Shown piece by piece: positions 1,668-58,028 of a stretch of 64,000 bases of DNA. The notes beneath the pieces were generated by a model. It made no database searches and was not told where the DNA came from. It saw nothing but the letters and a program-made list of their open reading frames with translations. Where the stretch lies: IMG/VR virus record IMGVR_UViG_3300027708_001885, positions 1 through 64,000 of that record; one strand, given 5' to 3'. The stretch comes from a virus. The position numbers were made by a program, and so were the translations under genes. The first letter of the stretch is position 1, and each line of letters begins with the position of its first letter.

Positions 1668-4137
1668 TCATAATAATCTTATTGATAAGATTGTCCATAA
1701 TGTTCTCAACACCTTCGCTAACTGGGACACTTTTAGCATCGTTAGCAAACTGTTTCTTAGTTGCATTGACAATACCACTGAAACGTTTGTCTGCACGTTT
1801 GTAGTCGCCTGCTTTATCAGCAGCAGTTGCATCTGCACTGGCGGCTTTTTTATAACGACCTAACGTATCATTGGATAGTTCTTTTAGGTTGCCCCATTCG
1901 TCTTTGCTAGTACGATCGTTCTTGGCAATCTGTGAGCCCATATACTGACTATCACGTTTCTTATCACCGGCCGCACGTAGTTTAGCAGACATTCCATCTT
2001 TAGGATTGGTCAAGCGTTTAGCTACAGTATCCATGGCATTGCTGCCTGCCTCCGCCACACCTTCTTTTGGTTCTGGTAAGCGTAACTTTTTACGCATTTC
2101 GGGGCTTGTATCTTTTAAACGTTTCTGTTGTTCTTTTTCACGCTGGGCTTTTGCTTCTGGGCTATTTGCTCTTTGTTCGCGGCGGTCACCGCTCGGTGTA
2201 CGATTATCCATTTCTGACAAGTCTTCCGCCACACCTTGCTGATCCAACATACTCGGTAAGCCTTGTGCCTTACGAGCCATATGACGAGCCCAATCTACTT
2301 TTTCATCATCAACCGCATCAACTAACTCGGCCATTTTCTTTGCGATTAGGTCGTGTGCTGTTGATGGCTTATATTTTTTCATATTCAACTTTTTAGCAAC
2401 ATTAAGATAAAGTTGTAAATCATTGCTGTCATCACTGCCATTAAAATCACCCTGAGCAAATTCGTTCAAGCCTTCCGCCACACCTTGCTCTGTTACTTTT
2501 CCTGTATTGCGTAATCTAGATTTTAGTGTGTTCTTTCTATAGTCGCTGTCTTGCTTAAACATCTTACCTGCTTTGGTAATACGACCTATAGGTTCTTTCC
2601 AACGCATTGAGTCGCCATACCCCGAAGAGTGATTCTGGCGTGGAAAATGCATCTTATTTGTGCCTGCTTCTACCTTGTTGGCAACATTATCACCAAACTC
2701 TTGTCGGATCTGATCTAACACTTCATCGGGATCGTAATGATCGTCAACGCCGTATCCGTCGTTGGATGGATCAGTAGCATCTCTATAGGTGTTAATTAGG
2801 TCATCTAATCTTGCTCGCTGATCAGGATCCAAGCCTTCCGCCACACCTTGCTCTTTAATGTTTAGTTGCTTTTTAGTGTATGCCACTGAGTTATCCAATG
2901 CGGCTAAACCTTTTTCTTCAGAGTTCTTGCTCAACCCAGTATCATAAAGTTCATCACCGTTATAGATCCGAACCTGCCAACCCATTCCAGTATTGACCAA
3001 ATCGTGTCTGAAGTTTCCTACCTTGACTGATTTGACTACATTCATGCCCGAGCCTTCCGCCACACCTTGCTCTCTAATTTTTAACTGGTCAGCAGGATTG
3101 CCACCACCAAACATATTACCAAAAGCATCACGTGCTCTTTGTTGAGTTTGTTTTTGCTGTTCCTTGCGGTCTGCGGTTTTTTGTTTGTTAGTTCCCTGCT
3201 TGATAGTTGTCATCATCTTGTCAAACGGTTTATCACCAGTGACCTCTGCCACACCTTTCTGAACCATCTTTTTACCAGTGCGTGGATCTACTCTTTGTGA
3301 GTCTTTAAATGCCTTGCTAAGGATATCGGTAGCTGCTGTAGTTGCTTGTTTGGCAGTAATTCCTTTAGCAGTATATTGCTTCTTACCAGCATCCGGATCT
3401 TTCTTGTCTCTAGAACCGTATGTGCCGTGACTTACATGTCCGTCACGTCCCGGAGGAGTTTGTGATTTGTCCATTTCTTTTAAACCTTTCTTTGGCTTGA
3501 CCATTGCCTGCATACGCTGTTTGGCCTTCATCATTAGATCTCGAACTTCGTCGTCTCCAATCTCTGGACTCATTGCGTCACGCCAAACTTGGAATTGTTC
3601 TTGCTCACTTTTGCTAGGATCCATTAATACGGCTCGCATTGGTGTAGCTCGTGGTCCTTCTTCCCCTGCACTAGGATCTCCTGTTTCTTGACGACTTATG
3701 ACGTCTAAATTGTCAAAACTGTATAGAATATTGCCTGATTTGTCTGGTTTATTGTTATAATTCTTCAGGTATTGAAAGGCCTTAACTTGATCAGCACCTA
3801 GCACTACTGTGACACTTGTATAACCTTGTTGATTTAAATTGGCCAATACGCGAGTTAGATCCGGAATCTCATCTGTAGCAGGTTGGAAAATGTGTCCGCT
3901 TTGTGGAAATACTTTCTTGTAGATTGCTATCTTTTCATCTGGAGTAATTGGATCATCTTTTCCCACGGTCTTACTAACAACAAAGTAAGGATCGCCACCT
4001 ACTTTACTTGCCTGTGTAATAACACTACTGGCCAACATCATATGTCCTTTGTGGCCCATACCTCTGCCCCAACCAACAACGGCTGTCTTGCCTTGTCCTG
4101 TTCGTTGTATAGCTTCGAAAATATTTCTTAAAAACAT
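1639..4137 (-). CDS. HxGH-type (cytidylyltransferase-like) nucleotidyltransferase domain fused to a modular QGVAE-repeat tail
   Basis: Likely start MFLRNIFE at 4137; GHKGH motif, VVLGADQV; six GVAE repeats in the C-terminal two thirds. Confidence 0.75.
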   Translation of the reverse strand: MFLRNIFEAIQRTGQGKTAVVGWGRGMGHKGHMMLASSVITQASKVGGDPYFVVSKTVGKDDPITPDEKIAIYKKVFPQSGHIFQPATDEIPDLTRVLANLNQQGYTSVTVVLGADQVKAFQYLKNYNNKPDKSGNILYSFDNLDVISRQETGDPSAGEEGPRATPMRAVLMDPSKSEQEQFQVWRDAMSPEIGDDEVRDLMMKAKQRMQAMVKPKKGLKEMDKSQTPPGRDGHVSHGTYGSRDKKDPDAGKKQYTAKGITAKQATTAATDILSKAFKDSQRVDPRTGKKMVQKGVAEVTGDKPFDKMMTTIKQGTNKQKTADRKEQQKQTQQRARDAFGNMFGGGNPADQLKIREQGVAEGSGMNVVKSVKVGNFRHDLVNTGMGWQVRIYNGDELYDTGLSKNSEEKGLAALDNSVAYTKKQLNIKEQGVAEGLDPDQRARLDDLINTYRDATDPSNDGYGVDDHYDPDEVLDQIRQEFGDNVANKVEAGTNKMHFPRQNHSSGYGDSMRWKEPIGRITKAGKMFKQDSDYRKNTLKSRLRNTGKVTEQGVAEGLNEFAQGDFNGSDDSNDLQLYLNVAKKLNMKKYKPSTAHDLIAKKMAELVDAVDDEKVDWARHMARKAQGLPSMLDQQGVAEDLSEMDNRTPSGDRREQRANSPEAKAQREKEQQKRLKDTSPEMRKKLRLPEPKEGVAEAGSNAMDTVAKRLTNPKDGMSAKLRAAGDKKRDSQYMGSQIAKNDRTSKDEWGNLKELSNDTLGRYKKAASADATAADKAGDYKRADKRFSGIVNATKKQFANDAKSVPVSEGVENIMDNLINKIIMNEAISNNRR
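2051..3257 (-). repeat. In-frame dispersed direct repeats GAGCAAGGTGTGGCGGAAGGCTTG (EQGVAEGL)
   Basis: Identical 24-mers at 2467-2490 and 2830-2853; near-identical copies at 3051-3072, 2223-2241, 2051-2063, 3248-3257, also 114-133 and about 288-304. Confidence 0.9.
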
Positions 4138-34954: not shown

Positions 34955-35555
34955 TGCTATCGATCACAATCCAACCTAACTGTTTGAGGTCTTCTCGAAT
35001 TTCATCAGTGACCACACTTTCGCCTACAAATGACTGTCCTTCTTTGTAGTGGGTTTGTTGCTCTAGTGTCCAGCTGTCCCACTCGCCTGGTTCTAATGGA
35101 TCGTTGTTTCGGATGCCACTACAATACCAATCAATGTAATCACCTTCTTCTCGCATGTCAGCAATAATACCGCCAGCATACCTCCAACTGGCACTCCAAC
35201 GCTCATCTTTTAAAATAGGTATAACATCTAACTTTTGGAATTCGTTATTACAGATAGCGGCATATAGATTTTGAGAATAGATGCGACTTTCTCGGACCTT
35301 GGCTAACATCCAATCGGTACTACGGAGATCATACTCCATATTATTCTTCTTCCATTCCGGATCTTCTTCTCTAGACATTTTATCAAAATTGATTTCTTCG
35401 TACATTTTAACTATTTCTGGATCAGGTATTTTGCCTTCTTCCACGGTACGCCTTAGGTAGTTATCTCGTTGAAATGTATTACGTTCAGGGCTTCGACTCA
35501 ATTTGGTCATAGGGTCTTTCTGGTCTATTGACACAGTATTCACAGGTTGGATCAT
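34947..35555 (-). CDS. Hypothetical protein
   Basis: SASWR.AGGIIAD..YIDWYCSG. Confidence 0.7.
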   Translation of the reverse strand: MIQPVNTVSIDQKDPMTKLSRSPERNTFQRDNYLRRTVEEGKIPDPEIVKMYEEINFDKMSREEDPEWKKNNMEYDLRSTDWMLAKVRESRIYSQNLYAAICNNEFQKLDVIPILKDERWSASWRYAGGIIADMREEGDYIDWYCSGIRNNDPLEPGEWDSWTLEQQTHYKEGQSFVGESVVTDEIREDLKQLGWIVIDSND

Positions 35556-52768: not shown

Positions 52769-53254
52769 ATGCAAGAAAATTATAAACCTGTTGATATCAA
52801 ATATGATAGAAATACTATAATGAATATTTTACAATCAGATAATAAAAATATTGTTAGACCGTGCTCTGTAGTAGAAAGATTTAGAATATCTAAAATATTG
52901 AATTTAAAAGACCCTATAACAAATATATTATACTTTCAAATGAATAAAGAATTTATAGGTGATATCCATAAAGATTATACAGGAGAATATTATATAACTC
53001 ATGCACTGATTTTACCGTTAATGGGTTGTAAAGCCACACATATGAAATGGTTTTTCCAAAACAATAATGTTACCAACAATTCATTGTTAGGACCGACTGG
53101 GAAACCAATTCCTTTGTTATTGCATAGTAATGCGACCTGTATAGATACTGTCAATTGCAATACTCCCATTATAGTTAAGATAGATGATTGGCATTCAATT
53201 GAAAATAATTCAATTGAAGAGGTTAGTCATCTTATAAGTATAAGATTTGAGTAA
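52769..53254 (+). CDS. Cupin/2OG-Fe(II) oxygenase-like protein
   Basis: HKD..WHSI..SIRF. Confidence 0.6.
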   Translation: MQENYKPVDIKYDRNTIMNILQSDNKNIVRPCSVVERFRISKILNLKDPITNILYFQMNKEFIGDIHKDYTGEYYITHALILPLMGCKATHMKWFFQNNNVTNNSLLGPTGKPIPLLLHSNATCIDTVNCNTPIIVKIDDWHSIENNSIEEVSHLISIRFE

Positions 53255-53277
53255 TGGAGCATATTATAAATATCTAT

Positions 53278-54150
53278 ATGAAAATAACACCTATAAAAGA
53301 TTCTTGGGGCTGCACTATTGAATTTGATAATCCTATGGATTTTTTTCAATATGACAATAACTACTGGCGTGATATGTTATATAGGAAAAAAATAATAATT
53401 TTTAAACGTATGAATTTTGAATTATTAGATTTTGCAAAATTTGGAACATACTTTGGGTCACCTTGGGACAAATGCGATTACACATACAGCCGTGAAATAG
53501 GATTAACATGTGAAGATGTTGATAAAAATTATAGTGTATCTCATTTCAGTAATAAAATTCTCGGAATAGCAGATAGTGAAATGCCATGGCACGCTGATAT
53601 TCCAAACCGAAGTTATAATCCTTATCCCCATAGAGCTTTATGGATTGTTAAGAATCCCAATCCTGATATATCGGGAAAAACAAAATGGCTCAATATTGAG
53701 GATTGTTTTAAACACTTAACTCCTAAGATGAAAGAATTATTGCCTAGAGTTAAGATAGAACAACAAAGTTGGTATGCACCCGGCACCGATTTAGGAATTT
53801 ATGATTTTATTAAAATACACCCTATTACAAAAAAACCAAGTTTGCGATTAAACTTTTATAATACAGATAAAATGAAAGGTGCTTGGATTAAAAGTGTCTA
53901 TATTGATAATGAATTGCAATCTGATTGCAGTGTGATAAAAATGTTTATTGAACATTTAGAAAAAATTCCCGAGCTAGTACATTATCACCAATGGGACAAC
54001 CAGGATATAGTTATATATGATAATTGGTCTTTTTTACACGGACGTACAGCATTACAGTTAGGCAACACTCCCGATACTCAAGAACGTGCATTTTATAGGA
54101 TGAATATTGATCATGTTGCTAATGATGTTTGGAACAATCAAAATATCTGA
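53278..54150 (+). CDS. TauD/TfdA family dioxygenase
   Basis: WHAD, G.T, HQW...DIVIYDN...LHGR. Confidence 0.85.
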   Translation: MKITPIKDSWGCTIEFDNPMDFFQYDNNYWRDMLYRKKIIIFKRMNFELLDFAKFGTYFGSPWDKCDYTYSREIGLTCEDVDKNYSVSHFSNKILGIADSEMPWHADIPNRSYNPYPHRALWIVKNPNPDISGKTKWLNIEDCFKHLTPKMKELLPRVKIEQQSWYAPGTDLGIYDFIKIHPITKKPSLRLNFYNTDKMKGAWIKSVYIDNELQSDCSVIKMFIEHLEKIPELVHYHQWDNQDIVIYDNWSFLHGRTALQLGNTPDTQERAFYRMNIDHVANDVWNNQNI

Positions 54151-54719
54151 TTTCCACCTTCGACTGCAATATCGACAATAAGATGTATTCTAAAATCATC
54201 ACCGTTGTTTATTAATTGATGAGGCAATCTATTATTAAGCTGACTTAACATTTTAAAAGGCATATGCTCAGTAATAGAAGAATCTTCTCCACTGAATAAT
54301 ACCATATTGTTTGTTTTAAACGGTATATGAAATCTTGAATACATTTCAAAATAATCACAAGGATCAGTATGCAGACCAACCTGACTTTTTGATTCTAATC
54401 GTACAATCATTATTCTTCCTAATGCAATACCATCAACTTGTTTATAAATCCATTCAGATGCTAAACATGCATTTTTGTATATATCGGTAGCAGGAAAATT
54501 ATTTTCGCATTCTGTAATCATGCACCATTCTTCAAGTGATGTTGGCAATTTGCCTTTTGGTATTTTATTTCCTCGAATATGAATGGCTTTGCTGGTATTG
54601 AACACGGAATTCCGTCTACTAGGATCTAAAATAGTTTCCCATTGAATAGTGTTTATTTCCTCTAACGCAGAAAAAAATATACAATCAGGCACTTCGGTAA
54701 TTGTTTTAACTAACGGCAT
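54138..54719 (-). CDS. Aspartyl/asparaginyl beta-hydroxylase-like oxygenase
   Basis: HTD, RFHIP, H...N, RIHLIVD. Confidence 0.8.
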   Translation of the reverse strand: MPLVKTITEVPDCIFFSALEEINTIQWETILDPSRRNSVFNTSKAIHIRGNKIPKGKLPTSLEEWCMITECENNFPATDIYKNACLASEWIYKQVDGIALGRIMIVRLESKSQVGLHTDPCDYFEMYSRFHIPFKTNNMVLFSGEDSSITEHMPFKMLSQLNNRLPHQLINNGDDFRIHLIVDIAVEGGNQIF

Positions 54720-54735
54720 ATATTAATTTATGCAT

Positions 54736-54810
54736 TGGTCTCGCCACCAAGGATCGAACTTGGATCAAAAGTTTAGGAAACTTCTATTCTATCCATTGAA
54801 CTACAGCGAG
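54736..54810 (-). tRNA. tRNA-Arg(CCU)
   Basis: Cloverleaf, CCA. Confidence 0.9.
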
Positions 54811-54812
54811 AA

Positions 54813-54887
54813 TGGTCCGGCGTAACAGAATCGAACTGCTGTTTAGGAGGTAGAAGCTCCCTGTATTTTCCACTATACGAACGCCAG
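54813..54887 (-). tRNA. tRNA-Arg(UCU)
   Basis: Cloverleaf, CCA. Confidence 0.88.
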
Positions 54888-54890
54888 ATG

Positions 54891-54964
54891 TGGTAGGTCA
54901 TGACGGTATTGAACCGCCGTATCTTGGATGTCGACCAAGCACTCTACCTTTGAGTTAATGACCT
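54891..54964 (-). tRNA. tRNA-Val(GAC)
   Basis: Cloverleaf; 5-prime end overlapped by the HNH ORF. Confidence 0.88.
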
Positions 54965-55630
54965 ATGTTTATTGTTGCTTCTTCCAAAATTCCAACCATG
55001 TGGTAACGGATCTGTTTCTAAATGAAGTTTGTCATCCACTCCGTCTGTTATAAACTTTCTATTTTTATATGATGCCGAACCTGCATTCAAAAAATGTTTG
55101 CTATTTTTTCTTCCATTTATTGATTTTATTTCAGCACTATGAACTTCGCAATAACTAGCAAATCTTGTCTTTACTGGCAACTCACAGCAGATACATTTTT
55201 TGATTTCAAAATTTATTTTTCTTCCCAAAATCCAACCATCTGGCAATTCTTTGCTAATTGATATTTTTTTAGATACTTTTAATTCCGAGTTATAAATCCA
55301 TTTTGTTCCAAACTGAGTATTTCCCGACCCTGTTTGTTTTTTGCTCTGAGCTTTAGAAAGTTTTCTTCTAAGCCATCCGTATAATTTATTTGATGGGCGA
55401 TTAGCAACCATCATTACAGCGGCATGTAATAACGCAGAATTGTCTGGATTTATTTTCACTAGTAACTGATGTGCCAGATAATGTTCTTCTGGTGTAAGAT
55501 ATACTAAGTTAATTTTATCATCCTTTCCACCTAGACATCGTGGTACAATGTGATGCCACTCACCGTATTCATTTAACGTTCTTACTGATGCTCGAATAAC
55601 AAGGTTATCGTATATTTTTTGATAGTTCAT
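54944..55630 (-). CDS. HNH homing endonuclease
   Basis: EWHHIVPRC.GG.D..NLV.LTPEEH..AH; GW..GR repeats; likely start MNYQKIY. Confidence 0.9.
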   Translation of the reverse strand: MNYQKIYDNLVIRASVRTLNEYGEWHHIVPRCLGGKDDKINLVYLTPEEHYLAHQLLVKINPDNSALLHAAVMMVANRPSNKLYGWLRRKLSKAQSKKQTGSGNTQFGTKWIYNSELKVSKKISISKELPDGWILGRKINFEIKKCICCELPVKTRFASYCEVHSAEIKSINGRKNSKHFLNAGSASYKNRKFITDGVDDKLHLETDPLPHGWNFGRSNNKHRSLTQR

Positions 55631-55652
55631 ATTGTATTTACCATCAAGTTTC

Positions 55653-55692
55653 ACCGTGTCGAGGTAGTGTTCTACCATTAAACTAAGGACCT
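55653..55692 (-). pseudogene. 5-prime half remnant of a second tRNA-Val(GAC)
   Basis: AGGTCCT-TA-GTTTAATGGTAGAAC-A-CTACC-TCGACAC-GGT, then breaks off. Confidence 0.8.
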
Positions 55693-55700
55693 GAATAGGT

Positions 55701-55851
55701 TTTCGAGAGACCAGCTATCTTTCTGAAGGACTCACTGGCTTGTCTCGTATGAGCGAGTTTAAACTACCCTGTATAATTCTACTGGTGTGTCATGCATCAG
55801 CCTAATGCACTAGAATACAAGGGACTCGAATCTCTACGTCTATCTCGAAAC
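55701..55851 (-). ncRNA. Unidentified structured RNA (about 150 nt)
   Basis: Terminal TTTCGAGA/TCTCGAAA stem, nested internal stems. Confidence 0.5.
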
Positions 55852-55972
55852 TGGTGCCGCTGCTGGGATTCGAACCCAGATAACCCCCTTGACATGGATT
55901 AAGAAAATTGCTGAACGTACTCTATACAGAGTCACCCTTTTATAAGGTGTCCTACCATTAGGCGACAGCGGC
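55852..55972 (-). ncRNA. tRNA-bodied RNA with the Y-RNA-like module in place of the anticodon loop
   Basis: 7-bp acceptor + ACCA, D and T arms; insert ACTCTG-TA-TAGAGT-ACG-TTCAGCAA. Confidence 0.72.
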
Positions 55973-55979
55973 AATAACT

Positions 55980-56054
55980 TGGTGGTAATGACTGGATTTG
56001 AACCAGTAACACTCTCCGTATGAAGGAGGAAGACTACCATTGTCCTACATTACC
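55980..56054 (-). tRNA. tRNA with CAU anticodon (Met or Ile2)
   Basis: Cloverleaf, TT-CAT-AC loop. Confidence 0.82.
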
Positions 56055-56170
56055 ATATAGAAACACACTGGCTTGCAAGACTCCTACTAACCTTTCGATA
56101 GATGTCGCAGTTAGTATTCAATGTGTTTTTATATGGTAGGGGTTTTATGAGTTGATGCATAAATAAGTGT

Positions 56171-57079
56171 ATGCCTAATTATACAACATTTACATGTTCT
56201 TGCATAGTCTGCAAACAACCAAAAACCTCAAAAGGTATTCATTCTCATTATCTCATTTCTCATACAGAAGAAGGACGAGCAAGAAATCGTAAAAATCGTC
56301 TTGCTGGTGGATTATTAGGTTCTGAAATTGCTAAACAAAATGCACAGCAAATTCAAAATCAATATTTAGAAAATCCTAACAAATGCAAACAGTGCGATGT
56401 CTCTCTTACATACGAGCAGCGTCATAATAAATTCTGTTCAACATCCTGTTCGGCAAGTTTTTACAACAAGGATCGAAAAGGTGTTGCTCTAGATACTGCT
56501 GTGAAACAAAAGATTTCAGATAGTGTTAAAAAGTTTAATCTAGAAAATCCTTACACCAAATCAAAACAGATGTTTAGCAGACTATCGTATTGTTGTATAT
56601 GCAACTCTGTCATACAAAACAAAATTGTTAAAACTTGTTCTTCTAAATGCAAGTCAGTGCTGTTATCAAACAACATGTCCGATAGAATCAAACAAAACAG
56701 AAGAAGTAATTATCGCAGAGATAAAAGATCTTATCTCGAAGAATCATTTGAAACTTGGTTGTTGGATAACAACATTTCTCTAAAATATGAAACTGAATAC
56801 ACTATTAAAAATCATATTACACAGAAATGGTATTTCGTGGATTTCTACTTTCCCGAAATAAATCTTATAGTTGAACTTGACGGGAAACAGCACGAAAAAC
56901 CTAAACACAAAGAAGCAGACAAACTTCGTGATGAATACATCACTACTAATCTAAACTTAAATGTTTTTAGAATTTCTTATGATGAATATCAAGCTGGTTC
57001 TAAAATAAACGAATTACTAAAATTATTGGTGAGGCAGGTGGGGTTCGAACCCACAAGGAGATTTCTCTCGCCAGATTAA
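56171..57079 (+). CDS. Vsr/DUF559-like PD-(D/E)XK endonuclease with zinc-finger repeats
   Basis: E..F, VDFY, VELDGKQH, D..RD; several CxxC and CS..C motifs. Confidence 0.85.
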   Translation: MPNYTTFTCSCIVCKQPKTSKGIHSHYLISHTEEGRARNRKNRLAGGLLGSEIAKQNAQQIQNQYLENPNKCKQCDVSLTYEQRHNKFCSTSCSASFYNKDRKGVALDTAVKQKISDSVKKFNLENPYTKSKQMFSRLSYCCICNSVIQNKIVKTCSSKCKSVLLSNNMSDRIKQNRRSNYRRDKRSYLEESFETWLLDNNISLKYETEYTIKNHITQKWYFVDFYFPEINLIVELDGKQHEKPKHKEADKLRDEYITTNLNLNVFRISYDEYQAGSKINELLKLLVRQVGFEPTRRFLSPD

Positions 57080-57114
57080 AAGTCTGGTACCGCAGCCACT
57101 TCGGTGTCTGCCCC
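57027..57114 (-). tRNA. Non-canonical tRNA, anticodon UUU (Lys), long variable arm
   Basis: CT-TTT-AA loop; GAGA-GAAA-TCTC extra arm; CCA. Confidence 0.8.
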
Positions 57115-57118
57115 ATAT

Positions 57119-57192
57119 TGGTCCCACACCACGGTAATGATCCGTGTTTTACCGGTTAAGAGCCGGTTACATCACCTTAATGTTTGTGAGGG
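57119..57192 (-). tRNA. tRNA-Lys(CUU), atypical T loop
   Basis: ACCGG-CTCTTAA-CCGGT; T loop ATCATTA. Confidence 0.75.
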
Positions 57193-57302
57193 TTAGTTGT
57201 ATTAAATTGATTTAATGTGCCAACCCTAGACCAATACGGGATCTAGAGCGACACTAACGTTTAGCACGTTTCATATCGTTCTCCTTTGAACATAATTAAA
57301 AT

Positions 57303-57378
57303 TGGTACCAAGAGTCGGGATCGAACCGACCACACCCGATTCTTCAGACCGGTGCTCTACCAACTGAGCTATCTTGGC
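57303..57378 (-). tRNA. tRNA-Phe(GAA)
   Basis: Cloverleaf, CCA. Confidence 0.93.
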
Positions 57379-57398
57379 ATTGATGAATATGATAATAG

Positions 57399-57472
57399 GG
57401 GTGACCACTGAGAAGTCTCACTCAGACTACAACTTTCACAGAGTTGGGTGCCAATTTTACACTATGGTCACC
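57399..57472 (-). tRNA. tRNA-His(GUG), atypical, no encoded CCA
   Basis: CAACT-CTGTGAA-AGTTG; acceptor extended into a 21-bp stem. Confidence 0.7.
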
Positions 57473-57489
57473 CCTATTATCACATAAAC

Positions 57490-57564
57490 TGGCAGGGGCT
57501 GAAGGTAACGCTCCTTCTCACCTAGTTTCAAAGACTAGTATCTGCTCTTATCGATTTAACCCCT
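57490..57564 (-). tRNA. tRNA-Gln(UUG), atypical D/T loops
   Basis: CTAGT-CTTTGAA-ACTAG, GCCA end. Confidence 0.75.
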
Positions 57565-57570
57565 AAATAT

Positions 57571-57632
57571 AACAGGATGCTTATTTTTCAATTAACAGTT
57601 GAATTGGATAAGTTTGCTGAACGCATCCTAAA
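57571..57632 (-). ncRNA. Minimal Y-RNA-like RNA (copy C)
   Basis: TAGGATGC-GTTCAGCAA..GCATCCTG. Confidence 0.62.
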
Positions 57633-57634
57633 AC

Positions 57635-57710
57635 TGGTACCCTACCCTGGTTTCGATCCAGGTACCCCCGCCTTATCAAGACGGTGCTCTCCCAATTGAG
57701 CTAGTAGGGC
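57635..57710 (-). tRNA. tRNA-Ile(GAU)
   Basis: Cloverleaf, CCA. Confidence 0.9.
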
Positions 57711-57715
57711 ATATT

Positions 57716-57793
57716 TGGTGCGTCCCGAGAGGTTCGAACTCCCGACCCCCGGCTTCGTAAACCAGTGCTCTAATCCAGCTGAGCTAGGGACGC
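57716..57793 (-). tRNA. tRNA-Arg(ACG)
   Basis: Cloverleaf, CCA. Confidence 0.93.
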
Positions 57794-57801
57794 ATTAAAT
57801 T

Positions 57802-57877
57802 TGGAGTAGGTAACAGGAGTCGAACCTGCATAAAACAGATTTGCAATCTGCCCCCTAGCCTTTCGGGTCATACCTAC
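57802..57877 (-). tRNA. tRNA-Cys(GCA)
   Basis: Cloverleaf, U73. Confidence 0.9.
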
Positions 57878-57884
57878 ATAATAA

Positions 57885-57950
57885 AACAGGATCAACTTTT
57901 TAGTTTCTGGATAAAAGAAAGTTTGTTAGTTTTGCTGAACTGATCCTAAA
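57885..57950 (-). ncRNA. Minimal Y-RNA-like RNA (copy D)
   Basis: TAGGATCA-GTTCAGCAA..TGATCCTG. Confidence 0.62.
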
Positions 57951-57952
57951 AC

Positions 57953-58028
57953 TGGTCTCTCCTGTGGGACTCGAACCCACGAAATCCTCGCCCCAAACGA
58001 GGTGGCATAGCCGCTAACCGAAAGAGAG
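57953..58028 (-). tRNA. tRNA-Pro(UGG), second copy
   Basis: Cloverleaf, CCA. Confidence 0.88.

Follow-up and report, generated by a model that had tools for sequence, protein, structure and literature searches.

Free-standing homing endonucleases usually limit the harm they do by sitting between genes or in self-splicing introns. In phage Aeh1, mobE splits the nrdA gene without an intron, and the endonucleases of the tRNA region of phage T5 are HNH enzymes. The GIY-YIG enzyme SegB of phages T4 and T6 uses the T-loop motif GGTTCRANTCC as its recognition sequence; it cleaves tRNA genes at their 3' end and passes to the progeny along with the tRNA genes beside it (PMC2330249). SegB is also widely linked to tRNAs, which it can amplify (PMC13096335). 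For T5, PMC2330249 proposes that the processing of tRNA transcripts lowers expression of the endonucleases. Here we describe a locus in which a gene for a free-standing HNH endonuclease lies between the 5' part of one tRNA-Val(GAC) gene and a complete tRNA-Val(GAC) gene of another lineage. The locus is found in a window of 64,000 nucleotides, the whole stretch of viral DNA that was analysed, which forms the first 64 kb of the 102-kb IMG/VR record IMGVR_UViG_3300027708_001885. As this record of 102 kb is only 22% complete by CheckV, its source is a very large phage. ARAGORN finds 34 tRNA genes in the window, at 45.6-60.2 kb and all on the minus strand, and the locus sits within this array. Its features, in window coordinates, are as follows.

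55650..55692, minus strand: stump of a tRNA-Val(GAC) gene of the CTACC type, positions 1-43 of the resident gene, recognised by identity to intact genes.
55631..55649, minus strand: junction and HNH leader, 19 nt, with no likeness to the intact Val gene after 55650.
54944..55630, minus strand: gene for a Mob-type HNH homing endonuclease of 228 aa, recognised by its phrog_655 match.
54891..54964, minus strand: complete tRNA-Val(GAC) gene of the CTTGG type, found by ARAGORN and Rfam.
54736..54887, minus strand: tRNA-Arg(UCU) and tRNA-Arg(CCU), a right flank common to HNH-less relatives, by BLASTN to the relative L112.

In the minus-strand reading the order is therefore the stump, the 19-nt leader, the HNH gene, the complete tRNA-Val(GAC), tRNA-Arg(UCU) and tRNA-Arg(CCU), with a spacer of 3 nt between the CCA end of the complete Val gene and tRNA-Arg(UCU). 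The TAG stop codon of the HNH gene (54944-54946) falls in the D-loop of the complete tRNA-Val, and the two genes overlap by 21 nt, the first 21 nt of the tRNA gene being at the same time the last 6 HNH codons and the stop (RSLTQR*).

The upstream piece reads AGGTCCT TA GTTT AATGGTA GAAC A CTACC TCGACAC GGTGA A from 55692 to 55650. These 43 nt comprise the 5' strand of the acceptor stem, the D-arm and the whole anticodon arm (CTACC/TCGACAC/GGTGA, with the anticodon GAC). Since the T-arm and the 3' strand of the acceptor stem are missing, the piece is a gene fragment and not a full tRNA; the Rfam tRNA model (RF00005) scores it at 18 bits (E=4.1), below threshold. It is identical at 43/43 positions to positions 1-43 of an intact tRNA-Val(GAC) gene in the giant-phage contig L002, where the same 43 nt run on into a normal T-arm and acceptor strand (exact-match scan, 30 nt; one other contig found). 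With a BLAST E value of 7e-20 among 739 phage tRNAs, this match is far beyond chance. A shorter stump pattern retrieved six further intact copies (L097, L099, L105, L108, L112 and L114), and the stump is identical at 40/43 positions to those of L112, L097 and L108. The likeness to intact Val genes is lost at 55650/55649, where the variable loop begins. A preliminary description of this DNA had recognised the 5' piece correctly and had placed the break in the anticodon stem; the whole anticodon arm is in fact kept, and the break lies at the variable loop (position 43). Behind the earlier placement is a C27-A43 mismatch, which is also present in all the intact genes.

The 19 nt between the stump and the ATG read ACTTGATGGTAAATACAAT. 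As the sequence TGGTAAATACAA[T/C]ATGAACTATCA that follows the stump recurs 5' of HNH genes outside tRNA arrays (L063 and L066), it is part of the nuclease cassette, and the true junction is accordingly placed, by this comparison of leaders, between 55649 and ~55641. A search of viral contigs for the junction pattern AAYAAYAARCAYAGGTCATTA gave no matches.

What stood at this position before can be read from three relatives that lack the HNH gene there (L112, L105 and L114). Their tRNA genes come in the order found in the window, Val(gac)-Arg(tct)-Arg(cct)-Thr...Glu-Ile(tat)-Leu(tag)...Thr(tgt)-Gly(tcc)-Val(tac)-Pro-Met-Gly(gcc), and the three align to it at 74-90% nucleotide identity. At the locus itself they carry Leu(taa), 4 nt, an intact CTACC-type Val(GAC), 3 nt and Arg(UCU); an HNH gene and a second Val piece are both absent. 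The 55-kb contig of L112 contains no homologue of the HNH gene anywhere; the gene is thus sporadic at this site, being absent from it in all three relatives. Homology to the relatives extends on the left through the stump (55700-55650, 92%). On the right, BLASTN aligns window positions 54914-54735 with L112 2392-2210 at 89.6% over 183 columns, an alignment that covers both Arg genes and the final 24 nt of the Val gene. In comparison with the relatives, the last ~31 nt of the resident Val gene have been replaced by a block of 759 nt (55649-54891), which ends 3 nt before Arg(UCU), as the resident Val does in the relatives. An intact CTACC-type gene in HNH-less relatives is what the preliminary description had predicted from its proposal of an intron-free insertion into a tRNA gene, and the prediction is borne out and the proposal supported; the arrangement that would have spoken against them, HNH-less relatives with the same two tRNA pieces, was not seen in L112, L105 or L114. 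A group I intron in the tRNA gene was considered and rejected, as an Rfam intron search of 54000-58000 gave no match and there is no room for a ribozyme, the stump being 19 nt from the ATG and the open reading frame (ORF) running into the next tRNA gene. The flanks were likewise rejected as exons of one tRNA, for joining them gives only chimeras based on the complete downstream gene.

The complete tRNA-Val(GAC) scores 58.5 bits with the Rfam tRNA model, against a cut-off of 29; its four stems all pair, its CCA is encoded, and according to ARAGORN it is the only complete Val(GAC) gene in the window. The divergence noted in the preliminary description is considerable. The CTTGG-type copy is identical to the stump at 26/43 positions and to CTACC-type genes at 46-51/74, and its changes relative to the CTACC type in the acceptor, D, anticodon and T stems are compensatory. 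Its affinity is with the Val genes of other large phages, namely that of L003 (71/74 identical) and those of L130, L132, L133 and L141 (68/74). In the last four the Val gene stands behind a promoter-like sequence and without an HNH gene, one of the contigs being 300 kb long, and the CTTGG type is therefore an ordinary allele lineage of other big phages, separate from that of the stump. Tandem duplication in place followed by divergence is ruled out in practice, as the stump is identical to L002 at 43/43 positions versus 26/43 to its neighbour. As a separate observation, many T-loops in giant-phage arrays read GGATCG(A/T)(A/T)ACC, with A at position 54, instead of GGTTCGAATCC; examples are found at L003 46-119, at L046 3676-3746, and in L023, L017, L040 and L045, and ARAGORN misses some of these genes, e.g. 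the Val gene of L003. Such odd T-loops were tried as a source of immunity of the fused tRNAs and found unconvincing, non-canonical T-loops being present in 8/25 tRNAs directly 3' of an HNH gene versus 59/341 elsewhere, and the window copy having a normal one.

The called HNH ORF extends to 55678 (54944-55678, 244 aa), where an ATG lies inside the D-loop of the stump. This ATG was ruled out as the start codon; because all homologues have their MNY start at the point that corresponds to 55630, the ATG at 55630-55628 is taken as the real start on the basis of the alignment, which gives a predicted protein of 228 aa. Residues 16-143 of the 244-aa ORF match the phrog_655 'homing endonuclease' profile (E=2e-48), Pfam-A gives no match at E<=0.01, and 2484 homologues were found, the best at 64% identity. 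A tblastn search groups the protein with the Mob-like free-standing endonucleases of T4-type phages. H26, H27, N41, H50 and H54 are invariant among the full-length homologues (HH..N..H; alignment A1), and the stretch with the HNH motif aligns weakly to McrA (6ghc, E=0.044). The gene looks intact, and site-specific cleavage by its product is predicted. The protein matches HNH families only and lacks the GIY-YIG catalytic domain that marks the SegB family; by analogy, the enzyme would work like SegB while standing outside that family. The gene is the sole copy in the 102-kb record, and its G+C content is 33%, compared with 40% in the window as a whole, as would suit an incoming element. The C-terminal tail of the closest homologue, P0001 (64% identity), which ends ..NNKHRSLD, hints at the same fusion of ORF and tRNA gene. 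A search with the C-terminal DNA-binding region found only the contig L013 and one GIY-YIG gene. The GIY-YIG endonuclease gene at L145 871-1596 (plus strand) encodes a C-terminal module, WITDG...(I/L)P(E/D)GW..G(R/K), that also ends the window's HNH enzyme, and it stops 4 nt before a tRNA-Gln(CUG); one DNA-binding module thus appears joined to two nuclease folds, both next to tRNA genes.

The layout is not confined to the window. We surveyed the loci of HNH homologues among the matches listed, namely the best 80 IMG/VR loci and at least 9 metagenome loci, and 39 of them, together with the window, lie in tRNA arrays and on the tRNA strand. Where there is a downstream tRNA (36 loci), the end of the HNH ORF falls at -60..+20 nt relative to the first base of that tRNA in 27/36, and in 16/36 the tRNA contains the stop codon. 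The overlap of the HNH stop codon with a complete tRNA-Val, as described earlier for the window, stands as anatomy and fits a replacement fused to the coding end. The fusion as such is not a special feature of this element, being general in the HNH group. For the detection of stumps, the spacer 5' of each HNH gene was compared by BLAST with 739 distinct phage tRNAs, with ORF interiors as controls; a tRNA 5' stump directly 5' of the HNH gene was found in 11 loci and in 0 controls, and three more stumps were read by eye (L013, L038 and L039). Another way of calling stumps, in which a synthetic perfect T-arm and acceptor strand were added before ARAGORN was run, was abandoned since ORF-interior controls were called as often (65 vs 76 loci). 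Stump and abutting complete tRNA have the same identity in six loci, Val in the window, Trp in L046, Ala in L037 and L049, Gln in L017 and Lys in L041, and in most of these pairs they are clearly different alleles; the Trp gene of L046 overlaps its HNH gene by 21 nt, as in the window. The break positions that could be read range from about tRNA position 43 to 60. A junction of the form ...GGTTCG|CAAA(T)GATAAATA recurs with Arg, Trp and Met stumps (L038, L043, L044, L046 and L054), 30 nt 5' of the HNH start, a hint that breakage or joining occurs at one fixed point after T-loop position 57 and that the conserved T-loop is used as microhomology. In some loci both tRNA halves flank the HNH gene and form a true split gene, as in the Val(GAC) of L013 and the Arg(ACG) of L043/L044 and L054. 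The L013 locus (1843-2640) consists of Val(GAC) positions 1-57, 9 nt, the HNH ORF, ~13 nt and the last 16 nt of the tRNA gene, the two halves matching in their acceptor and T stems; this split gene has GACAYGGTGAAG in common with the resident type of the window, and its enzyme shares the C-terminal region of the window enzyme at 38-40% identity.

From these data we propose, with a probability of roughly 0.7, that a free-standing Mob-type HNH gene entered the array by intronless homing at tRNA-Val(GAC), with a one-sided illegitimate join. The ancestral locus would have been tRNA-Leu, tRNA-Val(GAC) of the CTACC type, tRNA-Arg(UCU) and tRNA-Arg(CCU). The window enzyme, or one closely related to it, may have made a double-strand break in the resident Val gene at a point past the anticodon arm and before the T-loop. 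Repair would have used as template a co-infecting donor phage that had the HNH gene directly 5' of, and overlapping, its own Val(GAC) of the CTTGG lineage. At the right end homologous repair could have proceeded via the 3' end of the tRNA gene and the Arg genes, and synthesis would then have copied the donor Val gene followed by the HNH gene. At the left end, with no homology available 5' of the HNH gene, an illegitimate or microhomology join to the HNH leader would have left positions 1-43 as a dead stump. The foreign copy would restore a complete Val(GAC) to the phage and, differing in 17/43 of the first positions, is presumably a poor substrate for the enzyme. This proposal leads one to expect an HNH gene fused to a AGGTCATTA... 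Val gene in the contigs of the closest homologues.

Several points weigh against homing at the Val gene from such a donor. A full donor genome with the HNH gene beside a CTTGG-type Val was not found. The contig of L003 ends 45 nt 5' of its Val gene, where an ORF end abuts the tRNA, and these 45 nt gave no convincing alignment to the HNH C-terminus. Old and new allele have almost the same T-loop (TTCAATT vs TTCAATA), and reading of the T-loop alone in the manner of SegB would therefore not tell them apart, so that the new copy is not obviously immune; the anticodon stem and the variable region, for their part, are strongly different between the two alleles. In L018 the identity of the stump differs from that of the next tRNA. 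Finally, the 160 nt 5' of the stump (55693-55850) have no counterpart in the relatives; the stump being in this sense an island, more than one rearrangement may have occurred at the locus.

The alternative that survives best, though we consider it improbable, is a plain recombination scar, in which an illegitimate crossover between two phage genomes carried the HNH gene along as a passenger and the enzyme made no break. Phage tRNA arrays are mosaic and rich in short common motifs, their order varies widely between related phages, the flanks of the stump have no homology to the relatives beyond 5 nt upstream, and passages of PMC10448857 report nuclease genes at the boundaries of phage genetic exchange. 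Random crossovers would have to account, however, for stumps that abut the HNH start in 11 loci by BLAST and 3 by eye and in none of the controls, for a stump identity that equals that of the fused tRNA in six loci, and for the recurrence of ...GGTTCG|CAAA(T)GATAAATA with Arg, Trp and Met stumps; recurrent stumps, matching identities and a fixed junction together implicate the nuclease.

Somewhat less probable still is a two-step history, in which the HNH gene first landed within the resident Val gene and split it without loss of either half, and a later deletion fused its ORF to a Val(GAC) gene already present downstream, so that the spare copy was not brought by the element. The true split tRNAs of L013, L043/L044 and L054 have the form of its first stage, and the L013 enzyme shares the C-terminal region of the window's enzyme. 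The syntenic HNH-less relatives, however, have a single Val(GAC) at the locus, the 3' end of the complete copy lies 3 nt before Arg(UCU) just as that of the resident gene does in the relatives, and a tandem second copy present beforehand would still have to be of foreign lineage. A functional stump, acting as a tRNA-like 5' leader for processing of the HNH mRNA or as a half-tRNA decoy, is very improbable: the piece is undecayed (43/43 to a working gene) and lies in a transcribed tRNA array, but at 18 bits it offers no acceptor 3' strand or T-arm for an RNase P or RNase Z substrate, stumps elsewhere end at other positions and belong to other tRNAs, and a recent event explains the identity to L002 equally well.

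The recurrence of the layout invites a wider and more tentative proposal, which we regard as possible and somewhat short of an even chance, that the HNH group acts as a break-and-replace gene drive for tRNA genes. A nuclease fused to a spare tRNA would cut and overwrite a resident gene of matching identity, the cut falling between anticodon arm and T-loop; the near-universal T-loop could serve both as a portable landing site and as microhomology, allowing the element to hop between tRNA genes and between phages. Were this true, the group would do much to shape the tRNA arrays of giant phages and the turnover of their alleles.

The leader of the HNH gene bears signs of possible regulation. The arms TTGATGGT (55647-55640) and ACTATCAA (55626-55619) form a hairpin of 8 bp that encloses the TAAATA at 55640-55635 and the ATG at 55630-55628, and this hairpin, already noted in the preliminary description, is present in the minimum free energy (MFE) fold. 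The segment -40..+25 folds better than mononucleotide shuffles (z=-2.2); for a segment of 101 nt the fold was not significant (z=-0.8). Among 74 distinct homologue loci this region likewise shows more structure than the interiors of ORFs (mean z -1.53 vs -0.31, p=1e-5), and a TAAATA within <=45 nt 5' of the ATG is found in 63/86 homologue loci versus 2/86 controls; TAAATA resembles the T4 late-promoter core. The start-codon hairpin probably keeps expression of the HNH gene low. In addition, maturation of the tRNA-Val by RNase P would cut the HNH mRNA 18 nt 5' of its stop codon. For T4 segB, both a start-site hairpin and removal of the stop codon when the tRNA matures have been proposed (PMC2330249), and the window would therefore show a known logic again, in another nuclease family.

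As for the surroundings of the locus, near-identical DNA was sought in cultured phages by megablast, which returned just one match, of 50 nt in a tRNA-Arg. At 55855-55972 (minus strand) there is a tRNA-shaped gene with ~60 extra bases in the anticodon region, which scores 36.8 bits with the Rfam tRNA model, is called by ARAGORN with the intron option only, and is 95% identical at G001 35009-35135. Between tRNA-Lys(UUU) and tRNA-Met, an ORF of 302 aa at 56171-57079 (plus strand) encodes a DUF559/Vsr-like endonuclease (PF04480, E=6e-8); it runs opposite to the tRNA strand, and its 3' end overlaps the tRNA-Lys (57027-57114). In the relative G001 the Lys-Met spacer holds an HNH ORF of 192 aa on the tRNA strand (L012 8048-8626, plus strand), and in L112 the spacer is just 81 nt long and empty (3768-3850), so that the Lys(UUU)-Met spacer looks like a second landing spot for nucleases. 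Just past tRNA-Arg(CCU), at 53254-54719, two oxygenase-type genes lie in the middle of the array, the first (plus strand) for a TauD/TfdA-family dioxygenase (PF02668, E=2e-17) and the second (minus strand) for an Asp/Asn beta-hydroxylase-like protein (PF05118, E=4e-6); G001 likewise has ORFs between its tRNA blocks. Relatives sought via the neighbouring hydroxylase-like gene were not found.

Among known systems, the locus resembles segB of T4 and T6 most in its setting and expression: in both, a free-standing nuclease gene lies in a phage tRNA array (PMC2330249; PMC13096335), a hairpin covers the translation start, and the mRNA is proposed to lose its stop codon as the tRNA matures. SegB cuts the tRNA genes of relatives that lack it, and drives its own inheritance together with the neighbouring tRNA genes. 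The differences are equally clear, in that SegB has a GIY-YIG fold and the window enzyme an HNH one, segB sits between intact tRNA genes and a stump with a replacement of the same identity has not been described for it, and the cleavage sites of SegB have been mapped whereas the window enzyme is known from its sequence alone. With the Mob family of T4 (MobA-E) and MobE of Aeh1, the window enzyme shares the free-standing HNH type, the family phrog_655, the MNYxKIY start and the HH..N..H motif; the Mob genes are intronless homing elements (PMC2790892), as is proposed for the gene in the window. The known targets of Mob enzymes are protein-coding, i.e. the nrd region and gene 39/60, whereas in the window the proposed target is a tRNA gene; moreover, the broken gene has been replaced by a whole foreign copy instead of being left as working pieces. 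Phage T5 also has site-specific endonuclease genes in its tRNA cluster (cited in PMC2330249), and the passages of that paper on T5 do not mention a layout of stump and replacement. The best match to the N-terminal domain among cultured phages is gp28 of Synechococcus phage S-CBWM1, a 'putative HNH nuclease' (MG450654.1; 50% over 145 aa). Its gene also lies inside a tRNA array, between tRNA-Asn and tRNA-Cys, but it ends 244 nt before the next tRNA and is known by annotation only. A more distant parallel is offered by integrase-type islands and prophages, which likewise land in a tRNA gene and carry sequence that restores a working gene. These rely on a site-specific recombinase and leave the 3' end of the tRNA duplicated, whereas the window has a nuclease and no integrase, what remains of the old gene is its 5' part, and the incoming gene is complete and foreign. 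In a limited search of the open-access literature we did not find the layout of stump plus spare described.

Free-standing homing endonucleases of phage tRNA clusters are thus already known, and the new twist is the stump together with a foreign replacement of the same identity. By breaking an RNA gene and compensating with a whole spare copy, the element in the window would add a third way for a homing endonuclease to be tolerated, and would offer foreign tRNA alleles a way to displace resident ones. Should this be general, it would explain the tRNA fragments or 'pseudo-tRNAs' in large phage genomes, the differing order and alleles of tRNA arrays among related phages, and nuclease genes that end exactly at tRNA starts. 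It would also provide natural pairs of cut and uncut tRNA-gene alleles for the study of how HNH enzymes read DNA. As tRNA supply matters for the escape of phages from tRNA-cutting defences (PMC13096335), such cassettes may have adaptive side effects as well.

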